The notes beneath the pieces are model-generated. The model was not told the DNA's origin. It did not search any database and saw only the letters and a list, made by a program, of their open reading frames with translations. Both the position numbers and the translations under genes were made by a program. From an uncultured delta proteobacterium (lineage in GTDB: Bacteria; Myxococcota_A; Polyangia; Polyangiales; Polyangiaceae), in NCBI GenBank assembly GCA_963827955.1, contig CAWHDJ010000018.1, forward strand, positions 1,181,297 to 1,245,296: a stretch of DNA of 64,000 bases. The letters are read 5' to 3'. Numbering within the stretch: the stretch's first letter is position 1; every line of letters starts with the position of its first letter. Positions 7,971 to 33,434 of this stretch are shown here, piece by piece.

Positions 7971-8756
7971 GTGGTTGAGGGTGCGAGCAGCAGGTGGCTC
8001 CTCCTGGTTCGACGCGTCGCCGCCAGCGCGCTCGCCGCGGCCGCGTTCACGCTCCCGTCGGCGCGCGCCGAGGCGTACCGCCCCTTCGACGGCACCGACG
8101 CGGACACGGCGGAGCCCAGAGAATTCGAGCTCGAGCTCGGCCCCGTCAACTACTACCGCCAGGGGGATCAGATCTTCCTCATCACGCCCGGCATGGTCCT
8201 GAACTACGGCCTCGGCGCGAGGACCGAGCTGGTCTTCGACGCGAGTGTGTACGTGGGGGTCCACAAGCCGACCCCCGGGGCGCCGCGCGTGGCCCTGCGT
8301 GGGGACGACCTGCTCTTGAAGCACGTGTTCCGCGAAGGGATCCTTCAAGGGAAGACGGGCGTCAGCATCGCGGCGGAGGGAGGCGTGCTCACCCCCGAGA
8401 GCAGCGGGGGAGTCGTCGGCCTCGGCGCGTCGCTCGATGTCATCCTCTCGTACCAGTGGTCGTGGGGCACCATCCACTGGAACGAGTGGTTCCAGTACAC
8501 GCGCGACCACCACGCGGACCTCTACACCGGAGCCATCCTCGAAGGGCCTCACGACTGGAAGGTGCGACCCGTCGCCGAGCTCTACTACGAGAAGGATTTC
8601 GCGGCCGACCGAACCGGGTCCGTCCTCGTCGGCGCGATCTGGACCGTCAGCGAGTCGATCGCGATCGACGCCGGCTTTCGCGGCGCGCGGTCGGGCTCGG
8701 CGTACGTCACCGAGGCGAGGCTCGGGCTCACGTGGTCCATCCCGACCGAGGGCTGA
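7971..8756 (+). CDS. secreted protein, putative outer-membrane beta-barrel (MetA-pathway/phenol-degradation-like family?)
   Basis: The signal peptide (VRRVAASALAAAAFTLPSARA|EA) follows an in-frame GTG after the repeat array. Alternating hydrophobic beta-strand patterning is seen (LGLTWSI, VLVGAIWTV). The start is uncertain: GTG 7947, 7962 or 7971. Confidence 0.45.
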   Translation: MVEGASSRWLLLVRRVAASALAAAAFTLPSARAEAYRPFDGTDADTAEPREFELELGPVNYYRQGDQIFLITPGMVLNYGLGARTELVFDASVYVGVHKPTPGAPRVALRGDDLLLKHVFREGILQGKTGVSIAAEGGVLTPESSGGVVGLGASLDVILSYQWSWGTIHWNEWFQYTRDHHADLYTGAILEGPHDWKVRPVAELYYEKDFAADRTGSVLVGAIWTVSESIAIDAGFRGARSGSAYVTEARLGLTWSIPTEG

Positions 8757-8817
8757 GTCGAGGCCGCGCCAACCCACTGGCCCCCGCGCCCGTCTTCCGG
8801 TACTCCCTGATCGCTCC

Positions 8818-10216
8818 ATGAGCGACCCCGACGCGCCCTTCCAGCGTGAAGAGTCCCTCGACAAGCCGGGCATCGTCGGCGCCCGCTGGTGGCAGCGCAG
8901 CCTGGAGGCGCCGCCGGACATGATGTCGCGCCGGCAGGCGGTGCAGGGCATGCTCGTCGCCGGCGGGGTCGTGGCGGGGCTCGGCGTGATGCTCGCCGTC
9001 GCGGGCGCGGCGTCGCACGCGTCGAGCGCTTCGAGCGCTTCGAGCGACTACCGGACGGAGACGCGCCCCTCGCTGGAGGCGCAGAAGAGCTTCGGGTGGA
9101 GCTTCGGCGCGCCCGGCGAGGCGCTGACCTTCGACGGCCGGTCGAAGCAGCCCTTCGACCGCGACGCCCTCGGGCGGATGGTGGACGACCTCCGCCCCGC
9201 GCGCCGCGAGCACGCGCCCTGGTACGTGCCCACGCTCTTCCAGGCCATCGGCGCCCAGCCGCGTGAGCGCGCGGTCGAGGAGACGACGCCCACGGTCCCG
9301 CTCGCGCAGGTCCTCCAGCCCATCTCCACGGCGGCGATGGACCTGGCCTATCGCCGCGGCAAGGCGCTCGCCTCGTTGTTCCAGGGCAAGGACGCGGCCG
9401 TCATGGTCGTCGTCGACCTGCCGGGGCCCGAGGCCGTCGCCTTCGCGGCCGGCGCCGCGGCCGTCTTCGATCCCGTCTTCGCCTTCGACAACTGGCCCCA
9501 CCCGCGCGGCGTCGTCCCTGCGCACCAGACCCTCGCCGCGGCGGCGTACTACCAGCCCCTCTTCGCCAAGCGTAGCGCCCCCGCCGGCGCGCCCGCGCTC
9601 GTCGCCCTCGATCGCCGGAGGCTCGCCTCCTATGCCGACGACGCGACGCAGTTCGACAACCGCCACGTCGCCCGCGTGCCCGGCGCCGCTGCGCTGAAAG
9701 CGCTCGGGATCAAGCGGGTGCTCTACGTCGCGCCGAGCGGGACGGACCGGGAGCTCGACGATCTCAACGACGATCCGGTCGCCTACATGCTGGCCGGGAT
9801 TGAGGTGCGGCTGGTCGGCGCGGACGCCTTCGGCCCCGAATCCGAGCGACGCGGGCAACACCGACGCGCCCTTCTACTACGGATCGAGCGCCCACACCCA
9901 CCTCGGGTTCTGGCTCGCCTACCGCTGGATCGAGCCCCCCCACTCCGCCCATCCGAGCGCGCCGGTCACGATGGGGGGAGACCCCCCATACCCCCCGGCC
10001 CAGCCGGTCCCACCCATGGCGGGCGCCGCATACGCCTTCGCGCCGCGCGCCTCGCCGTTCTCCAGCGGCTCCCTCACGGGATCGGCGGAGAGGCCGAGGC
10101 CGCCGGGCTTTGCCACCGTGCCGGTGATCGTCTCGGTCGCCACCGGCCTCGTCCTCGGCGCCAAGCTGTTCCGGAGCGGGTCGTGGAACCGCGCGTCGGG
10201 CTACTCCGGAGGGTAG
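8818..10216 (+). CDS. hypothetical protein with a Tat-like signal (SRRQAVQGMLVAGGVVAGLGV), frameshifted near 9838
   Basis: It starts at the internal M of ORF 8437..10434 (MSDPDAPFQ..). The real-looking C-terminus (NPSDAGNTDAPFYYGSSAHTHLGFWLAYRWIEPP...TVPVIVSVATGLVLGAKLF) lies in the frame of ORF 9800..10216. Confidence 0.4.
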
Positions 10217-10222
10217 GGGAGC

Positions 10223-10840
10223 GTGGAGCACTCGATCTTCGCCCTCGAGGTCTGCGCCAAGCTCGTGCCGGAGAGCCCGCTCCGCGCCGGCCTGTGCGAG
10301 CTGATCACGATGGGGGCTGCGCCCCCAAACCCCCGCTCAGGGCTGGTCCGCGACGCCACCGCCGGGATGAGCCTGCACGCGAAGTGGTCGCAGTACCAGC
10401 GGGCCGCGCTGCTCGTCATCGAGCACCTCGGTGACGTCGAGCGCGGGTGCTGGGACTACTTCGACGACGAGGCGCGGGCGCGGCGCGACTACGACATGTG
10501 GACGAACGGGATGCTGACCGAGGAGGGCGTGCGCGCCGAGCCCTCCGGCCTCGCCGACCCCTACCGCGGCGAGCCCCGCTACCTGACGTTCACGATGGCG
10601 ATGCTCATCGCGCAGGGGTCGCCCGCCGATCGCATGATGCGGGGCGTGTGCGACATCCCCGAGGCGCAGCTCTGGCAGCGGGAGACGTTCGCCCGCATCC
10701 TGCGCGGCGTGTGCCAGATCAGCTTCGCGAGCGTGAAGAGCGACGTGCTCTACCTGATCCCGCGCGACGACGCGTGGGCCCTCACGGCGCAGGACCTATC
10801 GCAGAGCAAGTTCGAGTACCTGCGGATGCTCGAGGGGTAG
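10223..10840 (+). CDS. hypothetical protein
   Basis: A 205-aa ORF of non-biased composition with a GTG start 6 bp after the upstream stop. No recognisable domain. Confidence 0.4.
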   Translation: MEHSIFALEVCAKLVPESPLRAGLCELITMGAAPPNPRSGLVRDATAGMSLHAKWSQYQRAALLVIEHLGDVERGCWDYFDDEARARRDYDMWTNGMLTEEGVRAEPSGLADPYRGEPRYLTFTMAMLIAQGSPADRMMRGVCDIPEAQLWQRETFARILRGVCQISFASVKSDVLYLIPRDDAWALTAQDLSQSKFEYLRMLEG

Positions 10841-11224
10841 GTCGCGCGCCGGCGTAGGCGCATTCGCGACATGTAGGAGAAGAGGCGCGCCCGCGGCATC
10901 GGCTGCTACCGATACTTCTTGCGAGGTCCCGGACCTCGTTGCGAGGGTCGGCGTGCGGGTGCCCGATCCGCCGCCCTCGTTTCACCTTCGACGCCGAGAT
11001 TCGAGGCCATTTTGCAGCGCATCGAGCGCGGCGGCGCTCGTATGGTGCGGACCCCTCGCGCTTGGAACGGGACGTGCATGGCGGCCCCCCGCCGGGGTGT
11101 CTCGGCCTTCGGGCAAACGAAGGGCATCCCAGAAGAGCATGCTTCGAATGAAATCGGCTCACGTTTGTGGTGCCATGGACCGATGGGATTCTCGTCCCCT
11201 CCGGCGAGGCGTGGGAGGCGTGCC

Positions 11225-14200
11225 ATGAGCCACGGTTCAGGAGCGAAGCATTCTGCCCCGCCGAGGGCCCGCTGGCTCCCTTCATTCGTCGCGCTGCTCG
11301 TGGCGGCCCTCGGGATTGTGGTCGGCTCCTCGTCCTGCTCGAACCTGGACCAGTTCAAGCCCGGGGGCACCGGCCCGGTCAACTCGACCGGCAGCGGCGG
11401 CTGCACCGGCCCGGAGTGCGCCGCGCTGTGCGACGAGCACCCGCAGCCGGGCTGCAAGTGCGACGTCGAGGGCCAGCACCTGCTCTGCAGCAAGGCCGAG
11501 GCGAGCTTCCCGACCGAGGGCACCAGCGATGGCGCCACCGTCTGCGGGACGGGCTTCTCCGTGTGCACCAAAGGGGTCTGGGGAGAGTGCCAATCGACGG
11601 CGCGGTCACCATCGTGCCCAACGCGCCCCCCGGGTTCTACGCCGAGAACCTCGGCACCGGGACGAACTGCGCGAAGAACCCGTGCGACCCGGCCTGCAAG
11701 GACTTCGTCGACACGCCGACCGGCGTCACGGGCACCGGCATCGCGTCAGCGACTCGGGCGTGACCATCGCCGGGACGGAGCACGTCTGCGTGCCGAAGAG
11801 CTGCGCGGCCTCGGCATCAACTGCGGGATGCAGAGCGACAGCTGCGGCGGCGTCATCGACTGCGGCACCTGCGCGTTCCCGCAGGTCTGCGGCGGCGGCG
11901 GCCCCAGTCAGTGCGGCGTCGGGGTCAGTTGCACCAACCTCTGCCCTACCAGAAGCAGTGCTCGGCCGGCGTCACGACGAGCATCAGCGGCACCGTCTAC
12001 ATGCCGAACGGCACGACCCGCTGCCGAACGTCCTCGTCTACGTGCCCAACGCGCCCCTCTCCGCCTTCACCAGCAGACGGCGTGCGTGACCGGCGGCAAC
12101 TGCCGGCCGAGGTCTCCGGCTCCCCGCTCGTGGCGACGACGAGCGCCATCGACGGCACGTTCCTGCTGACCAACATGCCGGCGGGCATCAGTTTCCCGGT
12201 CGTCCTCCAGCTCGGCCGCTTCCGGCGCGTGTTCACGATGCCGGCGGTCACGCAGTGCACGAACGCAACCGTGTCCTGCTCGACCCCGCAGAGCTGCCTC
12301 TCCCGCTTCCCGCAGTACGAGAACGAACGTCGTCCTACGACAACATCCCGAAGATGGCCTTCATCACGGGCTGCGTCGACGCGCTCGAGTGCGTCTGGCG
12401 GAAGGTCGGCATCGGCAGCACCGGGGCCCCGGGCCTCGGCGGCACCAGCTACGGCACGGGCGAGTTCACGCCCGGGCTCACGAACGGGCGCATCAACTTC
12501 TACGCCGGGAGCGGCTGCCCCGGGACGTACGTCACCGACATCGGCACCACCACGCCGTGGGATTCGACGCTGCTCGGCGACTCGACGATGCTCGCCAACT
12601 ACGACATGGTGCTCTTCCCCTGCCAGGGCAAGGAGTACTACTACGGGACGAACCGAATCCCGTACGAGTCGAACGTCACGACCTTCGTGAACGCGGGCGG
12701 GCGCGTCTTCTCGACCCACTACAGCTACACCTGGATCTTCTCGGACACGAACGGCTACTACAACTCCGCCCTCAACCCGGCGATCAACTGGCACGTCAAC
12801 CAGAGCTACGGCGGCTCCGATCCGACCACGGGTTACATCAACACCACCTTCCCCGGGGGCCAGACCCTGGCTTCGTGGCTCATGGTCCCTGCCGTCGGCG
12901 CGTCGACGACGTACGGCCAGATGCAGATCAACACGATCCGGCACGACTTCGACAGCGTGAACCCGCCGAGCCAGCTCTACGTGAGCCTCGGCACGCTGTC
13001 CTGCGCCAGCACCGGCTCGGACCCGAAGAACTGCGGTGGCTGCGGGAAGACCTGCGGCTTCGGGAAGGTCTGCTCGAACGGCGCTTGCGCGAGCTCGTGC
13101 GCGTCGGGCCTCAAGAGCTGCTCCAGCGCGTGCACGAACGTCAACACCGACCTGAACAACTGCGGGTCCTGCGGCAACGTGTGCGACCCCGGCCAGGTCT
13201 GCACCTCCGGCGTCTGCAAGTGCCCGTCGGGGAGCACCGACTGCAACGGGAGCTGCGTCGTCACCAACAGCGATCCGACCAACTGCGGCTCCTGTGGGAA
13301 TGCGTGCGGCGTCGGCCAGACGTGCAGCAGCGGGACGTGCACGTGCGTCCCCGGGCTGACGAAGTGCAACGGCGCCTGCGTGCTCACGTCCACCGATCCG
13401 AGCAACTGCGGCGGGTGCGGCACCACCTGCTCCTCGGGCAAGAAGTACTGCCGCGGCGGGACGTGCAGCTCGTCGACGTGCACCGCCGGCGGGTACCCCA
13501 ACACCTGCACCGTCGGGAACCGGTTCGCGTGCGACACCGCGACCAACCTCCTGTCGGATCCCAAGAACTGCGGGATGTGTGGCAACGCGTGCGCCGCGGG
13601 CCAGGTTTGCAGCAACGGCACCTGCACGAGCGGGGTCACCGTGTGCGGGTCCGGGCTCACGATCTGCAGCGGCTCCTGCACGCTCCTGTCCAACGATCCG
13701 AGCAACTGCGGGGCGTGCGGCACCGTGTGCCCCGACGGGGACGCCTGCGTGAACGGCGCGTGCACCTGCTCCTCCGGCGTCACGTGCCAGAACGGCATCC
13801 CCCAGCAGGCGAGCTTCAACACGCCGCTCGGGATCGCCGCGAACAACCAGTGCGGCCGCGTCGTGTTCAGCGACTTCCACGTCGAGTCCAGCAACGACTC
13901 GCAGTACGCGTTCCCGAGCGAGTGCGGCGGCGGCGGCCTCAGCCCGCAGGAGTTCATGCTGGCGCAGGCGCTCTTCGATCTCGCCGGGTGCGTCAACATC
14001 AGCCCGCCGCCGACCTGCACCCCCGTCACGTGTGGCTACCTCGGCCTCAACTGCGGGACGGCGGGCGACGGCTGCGGCAACACCATCAACTGCGGGACCT
14101 GCCCATCGGGCCAGAGCTGTGGCGGCGGCGGCTTCCCCGGTGTCTGCGGCGTCCCGCAGACCTTCTCCTCGGCGAGCTTCGTGCGCGACTACGACGCTTC

Positions 14201-14612
14201 CACCGTCTGCAACATGGCCGCGGGGGAGCACCCCATCTGGCGCCTGTACTCGTGGAGCGCGCTCACGCCGAAGGACTCGCACATCGACTTCAACATCGCG
14301 ACGGCGACATCGCTCGCCGGGCTCGCCACCGCGACGCCCTACCCGCTCCGCTGGTCCAACCCGCCGGGCATCCCGGCGACGTACACGTCCGCCCAGCAGG
14401 CGTCGGCCCACGCCGTGAACGAGCCCACGTCCGGCAAGCCCGACACGGAGCTCGGCGGCGCCTCGCCCGACGCGACGCTGCTCGCCAACGTGCTGCCGCA
14501 GAACAACTACTACGTCCGCGTGATCGCGACCCTTCAGCCCTCGAGCGACCTGCTGAGCGCGCCGGTCCTGTCCTCCTGGGACATGCAGATCGACTGCACC
14601 ACCATGGAGTGA
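11225..14612 (+). CDS. large secreted cysteine-rich repeat protein (at least 12 CxxCGxxC modules); the N-terminal 1.1 kb is broken by about 8 frameshifts
   Basis: The signal/lipobox is MSHGSGAKHSAPPRARWLPSFVALLVAALGIVVGSSSC. Protein-like segments alternate between the three + frames from 11225 to about 12320 (ORFs 10919, 11167, 11316, 11911, 12255). From 12320 to 14612 there is a single intact frame containing NCGGCGKTCGFGKVCSNGAC-type repeats and PTCTPVTCGYLGLNCGTAGDGCGN motifs. Confidence 0.55.
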
Positions 14613-14639: not shown

Positions 14640-15524
14640 ATGATCGAAAGGCCCATGCCCACGCGCAAGCCCGTCAGGCAGCAACTCTTCGTGCTCGTGC
14701 CCGCGGTCGCGGGGATCGCCCTCTCCCTCGGGAGCGGCTGCGGCGGCGGCAGCCCGTCGTACCCGCTCTCGGATGGAGGGCTCGGGGCCTCGAGCACGTC
14801 GAGCTCCTCGCACGCCACGTCGAGCTTTTCCGGCGCCGGCGGCACCAGCTCGTCCAGCACGAGCGCATCGAGCACGAGCGCGTCGAGCACGAGCACGTCG
14901 AGCACGAGCGCATCGAGCACGAGCACGTCGAGCACGAGCACGAGTAACACGAGCGCGAGCACGAGCGCGAGCACGAGCACGAGCACGAGCACGTCGAGCG
15001 CGAGCAGCAGCGGGGAGGCGTGCACCGCCAACGGAGAGGCCTGCGTCGTGTTCTCCGACTGCTGCTCCCAGCAGTGCAACGCCGGCTTCTGCGGGCCGAT
15101 CGGCTGTTTCGCGAACGGTCAGGCCTGCTCCAGCGACAACGAGTGCTGCTCCATCAACTGCACCGACGGCATGTGCGCGAAGGGAGCGAGCTGCCTCGCG
15201 AACGGCTTCTCGTGCACGCTGGCGTCCGAGTGCTGCTCGACCGAGTGCAACGGCGGCAAGTGCGGTCCGGCGGGGTCGTGCAACGGCAACGGGATGGCGT
15301 GCTCGGACGACAGCCAGTGCTGCTCGAGCACGTGCGCCGGCGGCCAGTGCGCTCCGCAATCCTGCGCGCCGCCCGGGGGGAGCTGCAAGTCGGCGAGCGA
15401 TTGCTGCGGTGGTCTCAGCCAGTGCACCAAGGGCACGTGCACGAGCTGCAAGACGCTCGGGCAGCCATGCGCCGGGGCCGCGGACTGCTGCTCGGGTACG
15501 TGCAGCGGCGGGACCTGCGAGTGA
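14640..15524 (+). CDS. lipoprotein with S/T-rich linker and six cysteine-rich (C-x4-5-C-x4-DCCS-x2-C-x3-4-C) knottin-like repeats
   Basis: The signal is VLVPAVAGIALSLGSGC. The (STS)n linker is followed by CTANGEACVVFSDCCSQQCNAGFCG repeated 6 times. Confidence 0.6.
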   Translation: MIERPMPTRKPVRQQLFVLVPAVAGIALSLGSGCGGGSPSYPLSDGGLGASSTSSSSHATSSFSGAGGTSSSSTSASSTSASSTSTSSTSASSTSTSSTSTSNTSASTSASTSTSTSTSSASSSGEACTANGEACVVFSDCCSQQCNAGFCGPIGCFANGQACSSDNECCSINCTDGMCAKGASCLANGFSCTLASECCSTECNGGKCGPAGSCNGNGMACSDDSQCCSSTCAGGQCAPQSCAPPGGSCKSASDCCGGLSQCTKGTCTSCKTLGQPCAGAADCCSGTCSGGTCE

Positions 15525-15590
15525 TCGGTCCGATCGAGCAAGCCCCGGGCCCGGCTCCGCGTTTTCCGGTAAGCTCCCGGCGCCTCCGTC

Positions 15591-18478
15591 ATGGATCCCG
15601 CACCCCTGCCTGCTCCGCGCTCCAGCCAGAAGCCCGCCTCGCCCCGCGTCCGGGTCGACGAGCTCGCCGTGTTCCTCCGCCGTGTGCTGCCGAACGGCGT
15701 GCGCATGGAGATCCGGCCACCCCGCCCGGTCACGGCCGCGGAAGCGCAGGTGCTCCCGCTCTTCGAGGGGTGGATCCTCGGGGCTGAGCTCTGTGTGCGG
15801 GCTTCCGGTCTCGCCGACGGGCCCTTCACCGCGGCGCTCACGGGGGAGGGCGGCGCCGTCCTCGGCGCGTCCGCGGCGGCGTCCACGCAGCCCGCCCAAG
15901 CCGAGGGCGCCGAGGGAGATGCCGAGGCGCCCGGGCGCGTCGCCTTCTCGCTCGAGCTGGCCGTCCCGCTGCAGTCCCTCACGTCGTACGCGGGGTCGAA
16001 GGCGGCGCTCGGCCTCCTCCTCGGTCGTGGCGCCGCCGCGCCCGGCAAGGATGCGCGCCGCGTCGCGCTCGTGGCGCTCACGCTGGTGGGCAAGAATGGG
16101 AGCGGGCCGCAGCTCTCGCAGGTGGACCTCCTCGACGCGACGGGCGCGACGCTCTTCGACGCTCCGGAGCGGCGCCTCTTCGACCTGCAGAACCCGGAGG
16201 AGGGGCTGTGGCTCGGCTCGGGCAAGTGGCGGCTCCGCCTCGTCGCGGACTGGGCACCTGCTCCGAAAGGCGGTGCGTCGTTCGCGCTCGATGCGCGGCC
16301 GGCCCAGCTCTTCCACCGTTACCTGCGCGGTGACGACGCTCCCGCGGTGGTCACCGAGGATCCGACCCGTCGCGCGGGCCAGGACGGCCGGCGCACGCTC
16401 GCCGAGCTGACGCTCGACACCTCGCACCCGGAGATCGGAAAGGTGCCGCAGGAAGGCAAGGATCTGCCGCTCGACATCGCGGTGGAGCACGCGCTCTCCT
16501 TCGGCGAGCACGCGGCGGTCCTGAGCTGGCACGCCGCGCTGCCCGTGCGCCTGCGCGACCCTCTGCCGCTGCTCAAGTCGTTCCAGCGGCTCTCTGCCGT
16601 GGGCATCGACTTCGGGACGACGTCGACCGTCGCCGCGCTGTACCAGAAGGGGTACCGCTCGCTGATGCGCCTCGGCAGCACGGCGGCGGCGGGCGCCAAG
16701 GGGGCGGAGAACCCGACCTACCTCCTGGTCGAGGATCACGAGCGGCTGTGGACCGAGATGGACCGCGACCCGGCGGCCTCCCGCTTCCCGAACCTGCTCC
16801 GCGTCGTGCGCGGCAGCCACGCGGCGCGAGAAGCGCTCGCCGACGTGCCGAGCGCCGTGGTCGGCGAGCTGAAGAGCCTGCCGGAGCGGGTCGTCACGCT
16901 CGACCAGTCGCCGCAGCTCCGCGACCGCGAGCGCCAGCGGGACTTCCTCCTCGACGAGGCCCGCGTGCGCGTGCTGGTCCGCGCGTACGCCTACCTCCTC
17001 GGGCCGCGCCATCAACCGCCCCGGGCAGGACGTCTACCTCCACTACTGGCTCACCCATCCGGCAAAGTTCGACGCGCGCGCCAAAAAGCTGCTCGAGGAG
17101 GAGATCAAGAACGGCATCCTCCTCAGCATCCCGTCGGGCATCCCCGCGAGCGAGGTCACCGTCGCCATGAGCGCCAGCGAGCCGGAGGCCTTCGCCGCCG
17201 AGGTCTGCCCCGAGCTCGCCGCGCACCCGGCGCTCGAGCCGGTGGTGGCGCGCTTCGGCGAGCTCCGCTTCGCGGTCTTCGACTTCGGCGGGGGCACCCT
17301 CGACGTCGCCTGCGGAAGGTTCCGCCCCGCGACCACGGAGGAGCAGGAGGAGTTCGGCAGCTCCACGGTGATCGAGACGCTCCAGGTGAGCGGCGACGAT
17401 CACCTGGGCGGCGAGTACCTGACCCACGAGCTGACCTGGCTGACGCACCAGCACGACCAGGCCCTCCCCGAGATGGAGGACAAGGAGGTGCCGATGATGC
17501 GCCCGCAGACGGTGCCGCCGAACAACCTCGCCGAGAAGGCGCACCTGTACAAGCGGAGCCTGGCGGGCCGGCAGAACCGATTCCGCTTCGAGCGCGAGCT
17601 CGGGCTGGAGGAGGTGAAGTTCGGCCCCGACCACGCGCCCCGGCGCACCGCCGGGATCGAGGCGGCGCGCCTCGACGGGACGGCGGCGAGGATCGAGTCG
17701 CTCGCGGGGGATCTCTCCGGCCTGCACGCGCGGCTCGAGGAGCACCTCGCCGCCCGCATCCGCGACGGCGTGAAGCTGATGAAGAGCATGCTCGCGATCG
17801 CGCCTTGGTCCGAACAGGCGTCCGAGCAGCAGGCCCCCGCGGCCAAGCCCGTCGACTTCCGCGAGCAGGGCGTCGTCATCCTCCTCGCCGGCAACTCGTC
17901 GCGGAGCGGCTTCGTCGAGCGGGCGCTCGCGGCGGAGCTGGGCATCCCCGGATCTCGCGGTCTGGCGGCCCGACGGCGCCGATTCACAGCCGTTCTCCCA
18001 CGTGGTGCTGTGGGAGACGCCCGAGCGCAAGGAGCGGGGCGCGACCATCGTCGGGGTGACGCCCAAGACCGCGGTCGCGCTGGGCGCCCTCAAGATCGCG
18101 AACCACGAGGTGCACCTCGTCCGCCGATCGCAGGGCTTCAGCTTCTTCCTGGGCGACCTGCGCGGCTTCCCGCCGAAGTTCACCGCCATCCTCCCCATGG
18201 GCACGCCGACGGCCGACCCTTCCGTCTTCGGCCCGCACTACGTCGACTTCGGCCGCTGGGACTCGAAGACCCCGCTCCGCGCCACCCGCGAGTACGTGCC
18301 CGGCAAGATGACGTCGAGCGACCCGCGCGTCTCGCTCGTCCCCACCGGCCTGCCGCCCGGCATCGTGGGCCGCCTCTACGTCTGCGTGGTCGCGCCGGAG
18401 GAGGTCGCCCTCATGCTCCAGCGCGAGGGGCAGGAGCCGGTCTGTGTGATGCTCGACCTCCAGAAGCTCACCTGGTGA
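15591..18478 (+). CDS. non-canonical Hsp70-family ATPase with an N-terminal extension of about 300 aa; two frameshifts (near 17005 and 17960)
   Basis: VGIDFGTTSTVAAL (phosphate-1), FAVFDFGGGTLDV (phosphate-2), SGDDHLGGEYLTHEL and VILLAGNSSRSGFV match Hsp70 nucleotide-binding-domain signature motifs. The protein continues across frames (ORFs 15591.., 17167.., 18002..18478). Confidence 0.55.
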
Positions 18479-18624
18479 GAGGGCCGGCGGGCCAAACGGC
18501 GCGCTCTGTCGGGTGAACCACTCGGGCGCCCGGCCCTAAACGGCCTCGCCGCGCTTGTCCACTCCGCGGCGATTCGCGCGCAAAACTCCGGCTGTTCGGG
18601 CGCCTTGCCTACCATCTGCCCCGG

Positions 18625-20949
18625 ATGCCCCGGATGCACGGTCTAACGCTCGTCGTCGCCCGCCCCCAGGCGGGCCGCCCCGATTCCGAACCGACCCCGG
18701 CCGAAGAAGCAGGCGTCACCCCGAGGACGCAGGCCGACGCGATCCTCGACAACCTCGTCGAGGGGTCGAAGGTCCGCCTCCGGCTCGCGGAAGGAGAGGC
18801 GCTGCCCTTCCTCTGCGACCTCGGCGCGGCGCTCGCCACGCTCGCCGCCCGGGATCGGGCGCGCGCCACGCTGCGGCTCCCGGTCCACCCGGAGCCCTGG
18901 GAGATGGGGATGGAGCGCGCCGGCCGCGACGTGCTCGTCTCGGTCTTCCAGGGCGGCGGGATCCCCGAGGTGGCGCTCCACGAGCGGCGCGTCGACGGCG
19001 AAGCGATCGCCGCGCGCACGCTGGCGGCGCTCGGCGCGGCCGGCACGGCGCTCGCGCGCGAGGCGGAGACGCTGCTCGCCCAGGGCCTCCCCTTCGGCCC
19101 CGACGGCCCCTCGTCCGAGCCTGCCATCGTCGCGATCGAGCCGACCGGCGACGTCCCCCTCGTCCTCGCCGCGGACGTGCTCCTCCGCCCGCCTCCGCCC
19201 GCGCCCGTCGCGCCCCCGCCCGCCGTCCTGCGCGCCGACCTCTTCGCGCTCCTCTTCCGCGGCAAGATCCGCATCACCGTCGGAGACCACGCCCGCGAGC
19301 TCCCCGACGTCTTCGTCTTCCCCCTCGCCGAGCAGCTCGCCGCGCTCGCCGTCGAGGCCGTCGAGGCGTGGACGCGCGGCCGCCCCTACTACCGCAGGCT
19401 GGCGGCGTTCGGCGCCATCTGCGGCATGAAGCTCGACAGCGGCGGCGCCGCGTCCCTCACCCTCGGCGTGGAGCGCCGCCGCGAGGAGTCGCGCGCCCAG
19501 ACCTGGACCTTCCCCGCCGTCGACGTGGGCGCGCTCGGGCAAGGCGTGGTCGCGTTCGGGCGCGCGCTCGTGCGGAGCATCTCCCGCCGCGATCGCGCGC
19601 AGGCCAGTAACCTCCGCCTCCACGCCTTCCGCGGGCGCATCCGCGAGCTCGGCGAGCTGCTCCGCGCCGCGACCCGCGACGACTCCAAGATCAACGACGC
19701 CCCCGAGCGCTACCGCGCCTTCGCCGCCGCCGTGCGCCCCGCCGCCAACAACGCGGAGACCCCGCTCGCCCGCGCGCGCCTCCGCTACACCGCGCGCTGG
19801 ACGGCGGCCGTCCCCTCGATCGACCTCCGGTCCACCTTCCTCTGCGGCGACCGCGTGGTGGTGGGCGCGGCGCGCGAGCTCCACTGCCTGGACGCCGAGA
19901 CCGGCTCGCCCCTCTGGCGCCGGCCCGCCGGCCGCGCCGTATCGGTGATGACGCCGCTCGGCCTCGGCCGCCTCGACCCCGAAGGCCTCTTCTGCCTGCA
20001 CGACCTCGTGAGCGGCGAGCCGCTCTGGTCGACCCGCCTCTCGCCCCGCGTCGGGACGAGCGCGTCCGGCGCCGTGGTGAGCGCGCCCGGGCTGCCGCGG
20101 ATGCTCATCGTGAGCGAGGGGGCGCGGCACCTCGTGGCGATCGACCTCCACGGCGGCGAGATCAAGTGGCGCTTCGCCGCGCGGCGGGGCGGCGTCTTCC
20201 GCCTACGCCGGGCGGGCCGCCTCGTCATCGTCGCCAGCTCGGACCCGGCGCTCACCGCGCTCGACGTCCTGACGGGCGAGGTCGTGTGGCGCTTCTGCGA
20301 CCGCCTCCGCTTCGCCTCGCACGTCGCCGTGGACCACGACGCGCTCTTCGCCATCGCGGGCGGCGGCGCCTTCGTCGGCCGCGGGGGCACGCGCCTCCAC
20401 CACCTCGACCCCTGGTCCGGCGAGGGCCGCTGGAGCGTCGACCTCCCCGAGCACCTCGCGCCCGTCGGCGCGCCGCTCCTCGGGCCGGAGACGGTGGTCG
20501 TGGCGACGCACGGGCGGCGCGGGACGGGGCTCGTCGGCTTCGACCGCAAGACGGGCGCGCGGCGCTTCGAGCAGGCCGTCTGCGGCTCCGCGGCGTCGTG
20601 CCTGATGGTCGACGGCACCGTCATCGTCAACGGCGAGGACGGCGAGCTGACGGCCGTGTCGGCGAACGACGGGTCGACGCGCTACCGCCACGTCTTCTCC
20701 GGCGGCGGCGAGGGGGACCGACCGCGGCGCCTCGAGCCCGTCCTCCGCTCCGGCGCGCTCTTCGTCCCGCAGACCGAGGTCCACGTCGTGCGCCCCCAGG
20801 ACGGGACCATCCTCGGCCGCGTGCCGAACGACATCATCCCCGACCTGCTCCGCGTCGGCGAGCGCTGCGACGTGTACGTGGCGGAGGAGAGCGGGCACCT
20901 GGCCGCCTACGACGCGGGGCCCCGGCTCATGCTCGTGACCCCGGTGTAG
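18625..20949 (+). CDS. PQQ-like beta-propeller repeat protein with an N-terminal domain of unknown function
   Basis: The 774-aa ORF is intact. The C-terminal half shows repeated [G][S/E]xLW / DG-[TL]-[VI] propeller motifs (GSPLWRR, GEPLWST, GEIKWRF, GEVVWRF, DGTVIVNGEDGELTAV). It is co-oriented with the Hsp70-like gene. Confidence 0.6.
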   Translation: MPRMHGLTLVVARPQAGRPDSEPTPAEEAGVTPRTQADAILDNLVEGSKVRLRLAEGEALPFLCDLGAALATLAARDRARATLRLPVHPEPWEMGMERAGRDVLVSVFQGGGIPEVALHERRVDGEAIAARTLAALGAAGTALAREAETLLAQGLPFGPDGPSSEPAIVAIEPTGDVPLVLAADVLLRPPPPAPVAPPPAVLRADLFALLFRGKIRITVGDHARELPDVFVFPLAEQLAALAVEAVEAWTRGRPYYRRLAAFGAICGMKLDSGGAASLTLGVERRREESRAQTWTFPAVDVGALGQGVVAFGRALVRSISRRDRAQASNLRLHAFRGRIRELGELLRAATRDDSKINDAPERYRAFAAAVRPAANNAETPLARARLRYTARWTAAVPSIDLRSTFLCGDRVVVGAARELHCLDAETGSPLWRRPAGRAVSVMTPLGLGRLDPEGLFCLHDLVSGEPLWSTRLSPRVGTSASGAVVSAPGLPRMLIVSEGARHLVAIDLHGGEIKWRFAARRGGVFRLRRAGRLVIVASSDPALTALDVLTGEVVWRFCDRLRFASHVAVDHDALFAIAGGGAFVGRGGTRLHHLDPWSGEGRWSVDLPEHLAPVGAPLLGPETVVVATHGRRGTGLVGFDRKTGARRFEQAVCGSAASCLMVDGTVIVNGEDGELTAVSANDGSTRYRHVFSGGGEGDRPRRLEPVLRSGALFVPQTEVHVVRPQDGTILGRVPNDIIPDLLRVGERCDVYVAEESGHLAAYDAGPRLMLVTPV

Positions 20950-20963
20950 GAGGAGGCTGGGTT

Positions 20964-23401: not shown

Positions 23402-24427
23402 TCAGCTCGGCGGGCTCGCCTCTTCGGCGGCGAGGGCCTCGAACGGGTCCTGCCACGACTCGAACTGGAGGATGCCGAGCGCGTCGAAGCGCTCGCGCTG
23501 CCGCGGCGAGAGCAGGCCGATCCGCTTCACGGCCGGCACGATCTTGGCGAAGAGGAGCTGGCGGAACATCTGCTGGCCCTTGTTGTGGAGGGCGATCTGC
23601 ATGCACTCCTCGACCGGGAGCCCCAGCTTCTCCCACACCTGCTGGAAGAGGAGCCGATCGCGCATCAGCACGGCGGCCTCGTAGACGAAATCCTCGCGCT
23701 CCCGCCGCTCCGCCTCGGGGAGATCGTCGTAGTAGTCGCGCAGCGAGAGGACGCCGTAGGCGACGTGGCGCGCCTCGTCCGCCATCACGTACTGGAGCAG
23801 CTTCTTGAGGAGCGGCTCCGGCATCGTCTGGCGCATGATCCCGAACGACGCGAGCGCCAGGCCCTCGACCATGATCTGCATGCCGAGGAGCTTGATGTCC
23901 CAGCGGCTGTCCTTGAGGATGAGGTCGAGCAGCGTCTTGAGGTGGGGGCTCACCGGGTACGAGTTGCCGAGCTTCTCGTGCAGGTAGCGATCGAAGACCT
24001 CGACGTGGCGGGCCTCGTCGACCACCTGCGTCGCGACGTAGTACTTCGAGTCCATGTCGGGCACGGAGGCGACGAGCTGCGTCGCCGCCATGAGCGCGCC
24101 CTGCTCGCCGTGGAGGAACTGCGAGAGCACCCAGGCGTTGGTCTCGACGTGGACCGTGTCCTTCTCCTTCGGCGTCATGCGCGCGTCGATCGCGGAGCCG
24201 TAGAGGGGCATCATCTCCTCGGGCGGACGCGACTGCATCACGTCGACCTCGGTCGACCAGGGCAGCACGTCGTCCGGGATCCACTGGCTGCGCTTCGCCT
24301 TGCCGTACAGGTCGCGCAGGTCGCGCCGCGTCTCCTCGTATCCCCAGTTGTAGACGAGGTCGAGGCTGCACTCGATGCGCTCGAGGGACGACGGGGAAGT
24401 GCGCTGGCGGGCGGATGACGCGGGCAT
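23402..24427 (-). CDS. ferritin-like diiron-carboxylate protein (two E..H / DEARH motifs)
   Basis: It has VDEARHVEVF and MADEARHVAYG, a duplicated DEARH diiron-ligand motif. It starts at the internal M (MPASSARQ..), ATG 24425-24427. Confidence 0.55.
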   Translation of the reverse strand: MPASSARQRTSPSSLERIECSLDLVYNWGYEETRRDLRDLYGKAKRSQWIPDDVLPWSTEVDVMQSRPPEEMMPLYGSAIDARMTPKEKDTVHVETNAWVLSQFLHGEQGALMAATQLVASVPDMDSKYYVATQVVDEARHVEVFDRYLHEKLGNSYPVSPHLKTLLDLILKDSRWDIKLLGMQIMVEGLALASFGIMRQTMPEPLLKKLLQYVMADEARHVAYGVLSLRDYYDDLPEAERREREDFVYEAAVLMRDRLLFQQVWEKLGLPVEECMQIALHNKGQQMFRQLLFAKIVPAVKRIGLLSPRQRERFDALGILQFESWQDPFEALAAEEASPPS

Positions 24428-24506
24428 GGGGCCTCCTCTGCTCCGGACAAGGTTGTCGGCAGGGGGCACCCGCGGTCAAGCAGGAAGGCTCGTCACGGGC
24501 GCGGGA

Positions 24507-25577
24507 TCACTCCGGGGCGGCGCTCGACGCGGCGATGCTCCCCTTGCCGAAGAGCCGCTCCCCCTCCGCCACCAGGATGCCCATGCCGCCGGCCACCGAG
24601 GGCAGGAGCTGGGTGAAGTGGTAGACGAACATGAACGCCAGCGCCTTCTCCTGGTCGACCCCGAAGAACATGAGCGCCGCCGTGCCGCCCGCCTCGACCG
24701 TCCCGATGCCCCCCGGCGAGGGGACCACCGTCGCGAGGTTGAACCCGATGAGCACGCTGAACGCCATCCCCAGCGTGAGCTGGATCCCGAACGCGTGCCC
24801 CGTCAGGATGAGGGCGCCGACCTCCCACGCCCAGGGCAGCGGCGCGACCGCGAGCGCGATCGCGAGCATCCGCTTGCTCTTGAAGGCCGCGATGCCGGAG
24901 CGGAACGCGCCGAAGATCGAGCTCAGGCGCGAGCCCGGGCGCGGCGTCCACCCGCGGATCGTGAGAAAGAGCATGGTGCCGCCCCAGCTCACGAGCAGCG
25001 CGCCGAAGATGAGGAGCGCCTTGTAGAGCCACCACGGGAGGTCGCTCACCAGCGAGAGGACGAGCAGGATCGGGATCCAGCCCCACCAGTCGAGCCAGCG
25101 ATCGACGAACTCGGTGCCGAGGATGGTGGCCCGGCTCTTCCCGCTCCGGCGGCCGAGGTACTGCACCCGGAGCAGGTCCCCGCCGCGCGCCGGCAGGATG
25201 GCGTTGAAGAACTGCCCGACCATCTGCGCCCGGTACGCCTGCCCGTATGCGAGCCCGAGGAGCGGGTGCATCACGAGGTGCCAGCGGAGCGACTGGAGCG
25301 CGAGCACCATCAGGGCCGAGAGCGCGCAGCCCACGATGACGAGCGGCGAGATCCCGGCGACGTAGTGCGCCACCTCCGCCGGCCGGATGCCGCGCCAGTA
25401 CCCGACGCCGCCGGCCACGGCCAGGCCCACCACGAGGCCGAGCAGGACGCGGCCGAGGCGCCCGGCGAGCGAGGGGACGGCCGGCGTCTCGCCCTGTTCG
25501 GCCTCGCCGCGTCCGCCGTGTTCGGCCTCGCCGCGTTCGGCCTCGACAGGGGGGGCGGCGTCGCGGGCGGGCTCCAT
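24507..25577 (-). CDS. flippase-like / lysylphosphatidylglycerol-synthase TM-region (UPF0104) family membrane protein
   Basis: It has more than 7 TM helices and PSPGGIGTVEAGGTAALMFFGV near the C-terminus, the characteristic GG-G-E motif of LPG_synthase_TM. Confidence 0.55.
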   Translation of the reverse strand: MEPARDAAPPVEAERGEAEHGGRGEAEQGETPAVPSLAGRLGRVLLGLVVGLAVAGGVGYWRGIRPAEVAHYVAGISPLVIVGCALSALMVLALQSLRWHLVMHPLLGLAYGQAYRAQMVGQFFNAILPARGGDLLRVQYLGRRSGKSRATILGTEFVDRWLDWWGWIPILLVLSLVSDLPWWLYKALLIFGALLVSWGGTMLFLTIRGWTPRPGSRLSSIFGAFRSGIAAFKSKRMLAIALAVAPLPWAWEVGALILTGHAFGIQLTLGMAFSVLIGFNLATVVPSPGGIGTVEAGGTAALMFFGVDQEKALAFMFVYHFTQLLPSVAGGMGILVAEGERLFGKGSIAASSAAPE

Positions 25578-30566: not shown

Positions 30567-33434
30567 GTGACAGAGCGCACGAGCCGCAAGATCCCCGTCA
30601 CCGAACGCCAGTTCCTCTGGGTCCAGGACGACGACAAGGGCGAGGTCACCCTCCACGTCGGCCCCACGATGGTCTCGCCCACCGCGGCGGACCGCGTTGT
30701 CGTCGACGACGGTGAGGGCGGGTTCCGGGAGGACCTCTCGGGCCGGCCCCAGCAGATGGTGGAGCTCAGCGACAGCCAGTACGCGGTGCTCTTCAACCCG
30801 CTGGGGGAGAACGACGGGGGCCCGAACGGGAAGTTCCGCGCCGGCCGCAACGAGTCGCGCCCGGTGCGCAACGGCACGCGGGCGATGATCCCCGGCCCGT
30901 GCAGCTTCTACCTGCGCCCCGGGCAGCGGATCGACGTGCGCGACGCGCACGAGCTGGCGTCGAACCAGTACCTCGTCGTCAAGGTGTACGGCGAGGTCGA
31001 CACCACCGCGCCCTTCTTCCAGGTCACGGCGCGATCCGCCACCATCACCCGCGCCACGGCCGAGAGCCCCATCGCCCCCGGCAGCACCTCGCCCGACGGC
31101 GACGCGCGCGACGTCGTGCTCAAGCGCGGCCAGCTCATCGTCATCCGCGGCCTCGACACCCAGTTCTACATCCCGCCGACCGGCGTCGACATCGTGCCCG
31201 ACACCTCCGTCGACGACTCCGGCGCGGGCCTCAACGCCGCCGCCGCCCAGCGCCTCCTCGCCGCCCTCGCGCCCCCGCCTCCGCCTCCGCAGGCCGATCC
31301 GGCGGCCGTGGGCGGCGCCTTCGGCGCGCCCGCGATGAAGGCCGAGGCCGCCTACGACGAAGAGCGCGCCGAGGAGCCCGAGCAGCAGCAGACCCGCGCC
31401 CCGCGCCGCGCCGCCCCCGTCGTCGACCAGACCGCGCGCTCCCGCCAGCGCGTCATGCCTGCCGCCGCCGCAGCGCCCCCCGGCTTCGGTCCTCCTTCAC
31501 CTCCGCCGGCGCCGGCGCCCCAGCCGTTCCCGCCCCCGCAGACGCTCTCCGAGCTGGGATTGCTCGCCGCCGTGCGCCGCGCCCTGGAGCGCGAGGCCCG
31601 CCAGGCCCGCCTCGTGCGCCAGGCCGTCGTGCTCGGCGAGAAGGAGTACTGCGTCATCGTCGACGCCGACGGCAAGCGCGAGATCAAGGTCGGCCCGGCC
31701 CGCGTCTTCCCCGGCCCCTACGACGTCTTCATGGTCGAGGGCTCGAAGAACCGCGTCTACGACGCGTACGAGCTGCTCCCCCAGCGCGCCCTCTGGCTCC
31801 GCGTCATCGCCCCCATCTCGCGCGACGACCTCGCCGCCCGCCTCCCGCGCGGCTTCGCCCTCGACAAGGACCAGTACTACCCCGGCGACGAGCTGCTCCT
31901 CACGGGCGTCTCCACCTTCTTCGTCCCGTTCAACGAGATCGAGGTCCTCTCCCCGCAGACGGGCGAGGCCGTCGTCGGCAACGATCACCGCACCGTCTTC
32001 ATCGAGGCCATCGGCATCGACCAGAAGAGCGGCATCTACGTCCGCGATCTGGCCACCGGGGAGGTGCGGCTCGTCCGCGGCAAGCAGAGCTACCTCGTCG
32101 ATCCGCGCAAGGAGGTGCAGATCACCCGCACCGTCTCCGCGACGGACTGGAACCTGTGGATTGCCGGCAACGAGCCGCACAAGCGCACGGGCGCGCCCAT
32201 CACGACGCCGTGGGCCCTCTCCATCGTCGTGCCCCACAACATGGCCGCCCTCGCGACGTCGGCCGACGGCCAGCGCGTCATCCTCGGCCCGTGCGTGACC
32301 TTGCTCGGGTACGAGGAGACGCTGACCTCCATCCTGCTCTCGACGGGCACCCCCAAGTCGGATCAGGACCCGCTCCGCACCTCTTTCCTCCGCGTCGGCG
32401 GCAACCGGATCAGCGACGCGATCACCGTCGAGACGCTCGACTTCGTCGCCATCAGCGCCAAGGTCTCGCTCTCCGTCACCTTCCTCCAGGAGCAGAAGGA
32501 TCGCTGGTTTTACCACGAGAACTACGTGCAGGTCCTCGTCGACCACCTCCGGTCCATCGTCCGGAGCCGCTGCCGGACGCTGCCGCTGTCCACGCTCTGG
32601 CCGCAGATCCCCGCCGTCGTGCGCGACACGATCCTCGGCGAGAAGAGCGCGGCCGGCGGGCGCCCGGGGCGCGCGTTCCCGGAGAACGGGATGGTCGTGA
32701 CGGAGGTGGAGGTGCTCTCCGCCAACATCGTTGACAAGTCGATCGCCGCGCAGATGCAGCGGGTGCAGTCGGAGTTCGTGACGCTCCAGATCGGAGACCG
32801 CCAGGCGCAGGAGGCCCTCGCCTCCGCGCGCCTCCGCGCCGACATCAAGCGCCAGCACCAGGAGCTGGAGCAGGAGGCGCGGGAGCGGGAGGCGAGGCTC
32901 GAGGAGCAAGCGCGGCGGACGGCGCACGAGGTGAGCGTGGCGCGGGTGAAGGACGAGGAGTCGCTGCGGCGCGAGCAGCAGGCGCTCGGCGACGCGCGCG
33001 AGGCGGCGGCGCTCGCGGCGCGGCTCGGGCGGCAGGCGGACGAGCGCGACGCCGAGCGGGCCAACCTGGAGAAGTCGGCGGCCGCGCAGGCGGCGGCGAG
33101 GCGCGTGGTGGACGCGGCCGACGTGGAGAACCGGCGGGCGCTGCGCGATCTGGAGGTGCTGCTGATCCAGGCAGAGAGCGCGGCGACGGTGGCCGAGCGG
33201 CAGGCCGTGCAGGCGGGGCTCGTCGAGGCGCTCACGGCGCTCGGCGACAAGGCGCTGCTCGGCGAGGTCGCGCAGAACATGAACCTCGTCACCCTCTTCA
33301 AGGGCAAGGACGTGGGCACCATCCTCGCCGAGGTGCTCGGCGGCACGCCGGCGATGCCCGCCGTGCAGGCCCTGCGCGCGAAGTTCGCCTCGGCGCTCAC
33401 GACCGGCAGCACCCAGCCCGACGACGCCGGCTGA
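30567..33434 (+). CDS. major vault protein (MVP) homologue
   Basis: The 955-aa ORF is intact. From my recollection of the human MVP sequence, it shares blocks in the N-terminal repeats, the shoulder region and a coiled-coil cap-helix region at the C-terminus, for example: HVGPTMV / [31 protein letters not shown] / [46 protein letters not shown] / [30 protein letters not shown]...[27 protein letters not shown] / RVPHNAAV...[41 protein letters not shown] / VFPQNGLVVSSVDV. GC and codon usage look native. Confidence 0.8.
   Translation: [955 protein letters not shown]

Follow-up and report, generated by a model that had tools for sequence, protein, structure and literature searches.

A very divergent Hsp70-superfamily ATPase of Polyangiales, encoded beside GrpE-like and dynamin-like genes in relatives and apart from them in one uncultured genome

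The 64,000-nucleotide stretch of DNA analyzed here (the window; contig CAWHDJ010000018.1 of assembly GCA_963827955.1, from an uncultured member of the Polyangiaceae) carries on its plus strand a gene for an ATPase with Hsp70-like motifs, whose reading frame appears to be broken twice, and directly downstream of it a gene for a β-propeller protein. Given this arrangement, the question is what kind of ATPase the first gene encodes, whether the gene is still intact, and which proteins it belongs with. A preliminary description made from the sequence had proposed an uncharacterized Hsp70-like ATPase that is paired with the propeller protein. The account that we favor, and consider probable, is that of a divergent Hsp70-like ATPase that forms part of a gene module in relatives and that has been orphaned in this genome by a rearrangement, with the gene itself probably intact.

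Because the G+C content of the window is 72%, long spurious open reading frames (ORFs) are abundant in it, and the ORF listed at 15591..18059 (822 aa) consists of Arg-rich out-of-frame text past residue 471. Frame-by-frame translation, a frame plot of the G+C content at third codon positions (GC3) and a codon-score frame plot agree on a single plus-strand coding region that runs through three successive frames. The first segment (15591..17003, frame 0, aa 1-471) was delimited by translation and frame plots and is collinear with intact homologues, while the second (17005..17949, frame 1, aa 472-786) and the third (17951..18478, frame 2, aa 787-961, with the stop codon at 18476-18478) follow from three-frame translation and homologue alignment. 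Joined, the frames of 15591-18478 yield one ATPase of 961 aa, which aligns end to end, and through both junctions, with 24 intact homologues. All four motifs that had been reported for this gene are present in the repaired protein at the residues given: GIDFGTT at aa 338-344 (16602-16622), DFGGGTLDV at aa 564-572 (17281-17307), GDDHLGGEY at aa 601-609 (17392-17418) and LLAGNSSRSG at aa 764-773 (17881-17910), all on the plus strand. To judge from its conservation, the gene is not a chance ORF: its homologues at E=0 number more than 190, and a protein library contains 646 clusters of the family.

The first 334 residues of the repaired ATPase (15591..16592, plus strand) form an N-terminal extension, which the AlphaFold2 (AF2) model resolves into two all-β domains at aa 20-182 and 212-321, with a predicted local distance difference test score (pLDDT) of about 80-93 in most blocks. 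This extension has no sequence match in Pfam, NCBIfam or PDB, which agrees with the domain of about 300 aa and unknown function noted before, and it is specific to the Polyangiales clade, distant relatives having other N-termini. Alignment and model place a near-invariant acidic loop between the two β domains (FDAPERRLFDLQNPEEG, aa 189-205, 16155..16205, plus strand); its invariant columns are D190, R194, F197, D198, L199, P202, E203, E204 and G205, it is modeled as disordered (pLDDT <50), and it may act as a binding motif. The Hsp70/actin-fold nucleotide-binding domain (NBD) follows at aa 335-840 (16593..18112, plus strand), with large insertions and the motif set phosphate-1 GIDFGTT, THPAKF, SEPEAFAAE, phosphate-2 DFGGGTLDV, GDDHLGGEY and adenosine LLAGNSSRSG. 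The protein ends in a β-rich domain of about 120 aa (FLGDLRGFPPKF..., 18113..18475, plus strand), which has no Pfam hit and mixed model confidence and is kept in distant family members, as seen in the alignment and in an hhalign match to a distant paralogue that spans this domain. Neither Pfam and NCBIfam searches nor the AF2 model revealed a DnaK-type substrate-binding domain (SBD; SBD-β plus helical lid) in the repaired ATPase, so that the reported absence of a recognizable one holds after frame repair.

How close is this protein to known Hsp70 proteins? Pfam PF00012 (HSP70) gives no match even at E≤1, and the best NCBIfam scores are 19.9 bits for HscA (cut-off, 620) and 18.6 bits for DnaK (cut-off, 648), the DnaK and HscA matches of 14-20 bits being confined to aa 559-624. 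The statement that the protein is not DnaK, HscA or HscC is therefore borne out, with NCBIfam scores of at most 20 bits against cut-offs of at least 620. At the profile level, hhalign aligns aa 553-613 of the family with residues 183-235 of the E. coli DnaK NBD (E 5.9e-8), equating D564, T569 and D571 of the ATPase with D194, T199 and D201 of this DnaK sequence. By inspection, we take GIDFGTT to correspond to GIDLGTT of DnaK, THPAKF to TVPAYF, SEPEAFAA to NEPTAAAL and LLAGNSSRS to LVGGQTRMP. The AF2 model, computed from a 25-sequence alignment, shows two β domains, an actin-fold core and a small C-terminal β domain, and the top 50 PDB matches of this model in Foldseek are all Hsp70 NBDs (E 2e-8 to 1e-6). 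The ATPase thus combines an actin-fold NBD with phosphate-1 (DxGTT), phosphate-2 (DxGGGTxD) and adenosine motifs, as in the Hsp70 superfamily. The fold alone would make it an actin-fold ATPase; we call it Hsp70-type because of the sequence motifs and of a GrpE-fold partner in relatives (below). We conclude that the window gene encodes a very divergent Hsp70-superfamily ATPase of an unnamed, Polyangiales-wide family.

The more than 190 homologues of this family (E=0) are each encoded by a single ORF, measure 920-970 aa and show 56-80% identity. Their sources are Polyangium, Chondromyces, Byssovorax, Minicystis and numerous Polyangiales metagenome-assembled genomes, where they are annotated as “hypothetical” or loosely as “DnaK”; the ATPase is present in 72 species genomes, the closest named one being that of Minicystis rosea (77%). 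A profile search of 1.84 billion representative proteins, clustered at 50% identity, returned the 646 clusters mentioned above, of which 559 have E<1e-10. Most of these clusters comprise proteins of 800-1400 aa that have the ATPase and the C-terminal domain in common and differ in their N-termini. Pfam searches of 38 distant relatives gave two stray single-member matches, neither of them to HSP70, and NCBIfam gave sub-threshold DnaK/HscA matches in the phosphate-2 region of some members. By these searches, the family is nameless in Pfam and NCBIfam, and full-text literature searches of incomplete coverage turned up no published description of it or of the Polyangiales module. A survey of the Hsp70 proteins of Myxococcus exists (PMC8265645). 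Hsp70 is among the best-studied molecular machines, yet this family is invisible to both databases.

To identify the genes that accompany the ATPase, we compared 76 related loci with 10-kb flanks, 68 of which are informative in that each has at least 1.5 kb of sequence downstream of the ATPase. The order of the module in relatives is ATPase, GrpE-like protein (about 225-290 aa), GTPase (about 865 aa) and coiled-coil protein (about 650 aa). Where genes were called (three loci), the GrpE-like gene starts 4 nucleotides past the ATPase stop codon; in most other loci it starts no more than a few tens of bases past it. It lies directly downstream of the ATPase in 31 of the 68 loci, and in 3 more with an insertion; the GTPase is found downstream in 38/68, both partners in 14/68, one or both kinds in 58/68 and neither in 10/68. 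In the last group, the best-conserved downstream frames lie on the opposite strand, but this high-GC DNA is similar in all frames, so that the comparison has little to say. An uninterrupted order ATPase-GrpE-like-GTPase-coiled coil is present in more divergent Polyangiales clades, which suggests that it is ancestral. Toxin- or defense-type genes occur near the module in two flanks: AbiEii separates the GrpE-like gene from the GTPase in Polyangium aurulentum (L001), and an AAA_15/AAA_21 ATPase and a PIN-domain gene lie upstream in L005.

In the GrpE-like protein, the N-terminal helix and the C-terminal 60 aa or so are conserved; between them lie a variable coiled coil and a helical region. By sequence, a PDB profile search found no GrpE, Pfam gave only a match to a coiled-coil region (E 0.025), and hhalign against E. 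coli GrpE returned E 0.52. The AF2 model (pLDDT 91.6) combines a single long helix with a helical bundle and a β domain. In Foldseek, 11 chains of GrpE/GrpEL1 (E 7e-5 to 4.5e-2) and no other PDB entries match this model significantly, the hit that follows being at E 0.7. The structure search thus assigns the partner of about 250 aa a predicted GrpE fold, which would make it a putative exchange factor that is invisible to every sequence method tried. The GTPase of about 865 aa, in turn, scores 43.6 bits with Dynamin_N (PF00350; cut-off, 27), carries the motifs GLEKQGKS (P-loop), DLPG and TKVD, and has as its nearest solved relative the bacterial dynamin-like protein (BDLP) of Nostoc (2j68, E 1.2e-4). 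The coiled-coil-rich partner (656 aa) has no P-loop, no GTPase motifs and no family match, and we therefore rejected the idea that it is a second, paralogous dynamin forming a “dynamin pair” with the GTPase. No transmembrane stretch is predicted in the proteins.

Related linkages are found among distant family members, in all four of whose examined loci a coiled-coil protein gene adjoins the Hsp70-like ATPase. One locus (L078:3443-11270) holds two tandem Hsp70-like paralogues (970 and 1089 aa), which are preceded by two coiled-coil proteins and lie in an island rich in insertion sequences with flanking transposases and an integrase. In L079, a 249-aa coiled-coil protein is encoded immediately upstream of the Hsp70-like ATPase, and in L082 the ATPase is located among helicase, DrmC-like, radical-SAM and STAND-like genes. 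The fourth locus (L083:715-13201) encodes ZorA (2.5e-23), ZorB (1.5e-73), an Hsp70-like protein of 1271 aa, a 356-aa coiled coil and three Dynamin_N proteins, the two complete ones of which match LeoA/LeoBC at about 1e-18 to 1e-22. It resembles a composite of the Zorya/Eleos type with a distant ATPase-family member among its genes, and its gene order indicates that the linkage between Hsp70-like and dynamin genes recurs independently, in an overtly defense-like setting. This is the only locus with PADLOC v2 component matches (ZorA, ZorB and LeoA/BC). At E≤0.01, PADLOC v2 gave no defense-specific match for the closest intact homologue (P0001, 80% identical to the window ATPase), the Polyangiales GTPase, the coiled-coil partner or the propeller protein of the window, and for the GrpE-like protein only a weak LmuB match in the coiled-coil region (E 0.0054).

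What might such a module do? Two observations provide a basis for a mechanism, namely an Hsp70-type NBD with intact nucleotide motifs and, as predominant neighbors in relatives, genes for a GrpE-fold protein and a dynamin-family GTPase. The ATPase would run through an Hsp70-like ATP/ADP cycle, in which its own GrpE-like exchange factor would drive nucleotide release and so reset it. The clade-specific N-terminal domains, the acidic loop and/or the C-terminal domain might engage the assembly formed by the GTPase and the coiled-coil protein, which the ATPase could then load, disassemble or recycle, and the output might be membrane remodeling, repair or defense. By analogy, we tentatively propose that the ATPase is a GrpE-cycled, Hsp70-like remodeler working with dynamin-like GTPases. 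A functional analogy, and not more than that, is offered by Hsc70 and auxilin, which uncoat clathrin, and by cpHsc70, which disassembles VIPP1, since in both cases an Hsp70 cycle recycles a membrane-remodeling scaffold; here any interaction with the GTPase or a membrane is inferred. In a broader and still more tentative generalization, the family may be part of a large undescribed superfamily of Hsp70-like ATPases with variable N-termini that lie repeatedly beside dynamin-family GTPases, as in the four-gene module of Polyangiales and in the ZorAB-Hsp70-like-Leo dynamin order of a distant branch; the coiled-coil neighbor of the distant loci would have its Polyangiales counterpart in the GrpE-fold protein. 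Such ATPases and their partners would constitute a prokaryotic machine of the type “Hsp70 + exchange factor + dynamin”, which would serve in membrane remodeling or antiphage defense and has no described counterpart. If the linkage is functional, it would provide a testable bacterial Hsp70-type cycle coupled to a dynamin-type scaffold, with bearing on the function of bacterial dynamins and on how defense or membrane-repair assemblies are reset; what makes the case interesting, a divergent Hsp70/GrpE pair linked with dynamin-like GTPases, is a property of the family and not of the window locus, where only the orphaned ATPase is present.

Several known systems resemble the module in part. With the DnaK-GrpE pair, the window ATPase shares the NBD fold and the phosphate-1, phosphate-2 and adenosine motifs, and the adjacent partner in relatives shares the GrpE architecture of long helix, helical bundle and C-terminal β domain. 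Unlike DnaK, however, the ATPase falls below every Pfam and NCBIfam Hsp70 threshold, has 334 aa of N-terminal β domains and large NBD insertions, and is without SBD-β or lid; moreover, no J-domain gene was seen nearby, sequence comparison fails to detect the GrpE-like protein, and the exchange factor is absent from the window. In the “chaperone group” of cyanobacterial BDLPs, a DnaK-domain gene lies downstream of the dynamin-like protein gene (Jilly et al. 2018, PMC5827413), so that there, too, the genes for a bacterial dynamin-like GTPase and for a protein with a DnaK-type domain are linked. In that group, though, the DnaK domain is recognizable and downstream, whereas the Polyangiales ATPase is far more divergent and upstream, and the Polyangiales module, from a different taxon, adds a GrpE-like factor and a coiled-coil partner. 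The GAP1-N2 DO-GTPase conflict systems, mainly of Actinobacteria and Firmicutes, include HSP70 and GrpE (Kaur, Burroughs, Iyer, Aravind 2020, PMC7159879) and likewise combine a large TRAFAC GTPase and a downstream partner with an HSP70, sometimes SBD-less, and a GrpE. The DO-GTPases, however, form a separate family that has zinc ribbons at the N-terminus and GAP1 as partner, whereas the Polyangiales GTPase, which lacks a zinc ribbon, gives matches to Dynamin_N and to Nostoc BDLP. Eleos (LeoA/LeoBC) and Zorya (ZorAB) are linked to the family through the distant member that lies between ZorA/ZorB and three Leo-type dynamins; in contrast, the window ATPase, the propeller protein and the Polyangiales GTPase match no PADLOC model, and the Polyangiales loci with examined called genes contain no Zor genes.

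In the window itself, none of the GrpE-like gene, the GTPase and the coiled-coil partner is found in any frame of the 64 kb, so that the ATPase gene is separated from all three partners and orphaned within this distance. Alignment by blastn locates the break. Window positions 15581-18478 correspond to positions 7990-10898 of a related ATPase locus (L002), with homology ending exactly at the ATPase stop codon, and in the three close relatives whose DNA was compared, the GrpE-like gene begins a few bases past this stop, at 4 bases in the two of them with called genes; at the junction in the window it is missing.

Whether the orphaned gene is intact depends on the two frame changes, whose positions near 17.00 and 17.95 kb agree with those reported earlier and which, as had been suspected, are indels of one extra base each, as seen from the sequence and from comparison with relatives. 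The first (0 to +1; 17001..17005, plus strand) is an extra base in the run GGGCC, where a DNA alignment shows a 1-base gap in 7/7 relatives; the protein junction, ...YAYLLG|RAINRPGQDVY..., agrees with the family consensus. The second (17946..17951, plus strand) is an extra base in CCCCGG, with ATCCCCGGATCTC in the window against ATCCCCGATCTC in Minicystis, and its junction, ...ELGIP|DLAVWRP..., agrees with the consensus ELGIPDLKVWRP. Both are +1 insertions in homopolymer-type G/C runs and are absent from all relatives compared. The protein around them shows no decay: private substitutions at otherwise invariant columns number only two, both conservative (T210S and L689I) and within the range of intact homologues, and codon bias and GC3 are undiminished in all three segments. 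Two further candidate +1 changes, in which the coding signal jumps by +1 with no stop, lie in other plus-strand genes of the window. One is an extra C (DGRSCE|LCVKV) at about 34.82 kb in a gene at 33.5-35.8 kb, and the other (...GADAFGPE|PSDAGNTDAPFYYG...) is located at about 9.83 kb in a gene at 8.87-10.2 kb; neither Pfam nor tblastn against the fetched loci returned homologues that confirm them. The former gene encodes about 763 aa with an EF-hand-like DTDKDGRI motif and C-terminal hydrophobic segments, the latter about 465 aa, and both are without a Pfam match. An exact 42-mer search of metagenomes for a second copy of the same organism, in which the extra bases could be compared, gave no match. 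Since the protein shows no decay and similar +1 changes occur in two other genes, a sequencing or assembly error is the likely origin of the extra bases; all four changes being insertions in G/C runs, a technical bias would fit better than independent mutations, and the ATPase gene is accordingly probably intact. An annotation pipeline would nevertheless call it a pseudogene or break it into fragments.

The alternative that survives best is a recent pseudogene, in which a rearrangement removed the GrpE-like and GTPase partners and two real frameshift mutations followed. It would account for two frame changes within a single 2.9-kb gene, for the missing partners and for a synteny break exactly at the stop codon. 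We nonetheless regard it as unlikely: invariant positions show no excess of substitutions, GC3 and codon bias are undiminished, the two candidate G/C-run insertions in unrelated genes point to a technical bias, in ten relatives the ATPase is intact and both partners are lacking within 10 kb of it (within 2 kb on one short contig), and in many the ATPase persists with no GTPase next to it. Against the account of an intact gene from a GrpE/dynamin-type module, in turn, stand several points. Two frameshifts together with lost partners are what an early pseudogene would also show, and the +1 changes in the other two genes are called from coding potential only. With the partners absent from the 64 kb, it is not possible to demonstrate the module in this genome, and ten related loci likewise have neither partner. 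A J-domain (DnaJ family) gene is absent among the called neighbors of four related loci, and the neighborhoods and proteins examined offer no sign of a J-domain protein, a membrane anchor or an effector. Finally, the ATPase model is moderately confident (mean pLDDT 68), and the remodeling mechanism draws on gene order and analogy.

As to the biochemical nature of the protein, it could instead be a polymerizing, actin- or MreB-like cytomotive ATPase whose partners regulate filaments, rather than a chaperone-like Hsp70. HSP70 components of GTPase-centered systems have indeed been suggested to form multimeric assemblies (Kaur et al. 2020, PMC7159879). However, the 50 best Foldseek (3Di+AA) matches are solely Hsp70 NBDs, at the sequence level DnaK and HscA alone are matched, the signature motifs are of the Hsp70 type (DxGGGTxD and GDxxLGGE), and a partner with the GrpE fold belongs specifically to nucleotide cycling of the Hsp70 type, all of which makes a cytomotive role improbable.

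The downstream gene (18625-20949, plus strand) encodes 774 aa, and Pfam and NCBIfam scans corroborate its description as an N-terminal domain of unknown family fused to a PQQ propeller. The N-terminal part of about 445 aa (18625..19959) has no Pfam or NCBIfam match, and the remainder (19960..20949, including the stop codon; about aa 450-770) is a PQQ_2/BamB-like β-propeller (PF13360, 3.6e-37, 128.7 bits against a cut-off of 27.6). While its PQQ_2 repeats are thus well above threshold, as in BamB-like propellers, the protein scores far below the cut-offs for the BamB equivalog (TIGR03300, 69.4 bits versus 285.2), PRK11138 (35.9 versus 423) and PQQ dehydrogenase (TIGR03075, 28 versus 480), and it differs from BamB in its 445-aa N-domain and in having, as judged by eye, no obvious signal-like stretch at the N-terminus. 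Its orthologues cover 95-100% of the query, so that N-domain and propeller are kept together in Polyangiaceae. The N-domain gave no blastp match to the small downstream proteins of relatives, and a kinship between them was rejected.

Do the ATPase and this protein form a functional two-gene system? The two genes are co-oriented with 146 nucleotides between them, the gap contains no terminator-like or promoter-like site, and the genes flanking the pair on either side are on the opposite strand, so that cotranscription is possible in this one genome; such read-through would say nothing about function. Against such a system, tblastn searches with both halves of the protein found nothing in the 76 related loci, and none of the 68 informative ones has a propeller homologue within 10 kb of the ATPase. 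The closest propeller orthologue (86%) and that of M. rosea (73%), N-domain included, have unrelated neighbors and no ATPase nearby; in M. rosea, the ATPase and propeller genes are located at 3.23 and 2.68 Mb, about 550 kb apart. In addition, blastn matches window positions 18543-20952 to positions 9917-12317 of a propeller locus on another contig (L080), so that two independent blocks of DNA are joined at 18479-18542. Synteny, orthologue locations and block boundaries together identify the adjacency as a lineage-specific junction; on these comparisons it is incidental, produced by a rearrangement just after the ATPase stop. We therefore rejected the functional pair, which we consider highly improbable. 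The preliminary description had itself named a lack of conservation in relatives as evidence against the pairing, and this lack is what the 68 loci show; of its statement that ATPases paired with propellers are uncharacterized, the part that stands is that the ATPase is uncharacterized, while the pairing does not. As for the frame changes, programmed ribosomal frameshifting, which the same direction (+1) at both sites might recall, can be dismissed for practical purposes, as the changes are absent in 24/24 aligned full-length homologues and in 7/7 relatives compared as DNA, lie in plain G/C runs in which no known +1 shift motif was seen, and have similar counterparts in unrelated window genes.

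Other features of the window deserve mention. Upstream of the ATPase, a gene at 12255-14612 (plus strand) encodes a cysteine-rich repeat protein of 785 aa with STIG1-like repeats (2.8e-21), and a tandem repeat of 15-bp units (14842-15006; 11.6 copies, 81% matches) lies about 600 bp before the ATPase start, inside a weak minus-strand ORF in which it would encode LVLDV-type repeats. Downstream, genes for an AurF-like di-iron oxygenase and an LPG_synthase_TM protein stand side by side on the minus strand (23402-25577), and a plus-strand gene at 30573-33431 encodes a 953-aa bacterial homologue of the Major Vault Protein, recognized by its shoulder domain (1.4e-16) and vault repeats.

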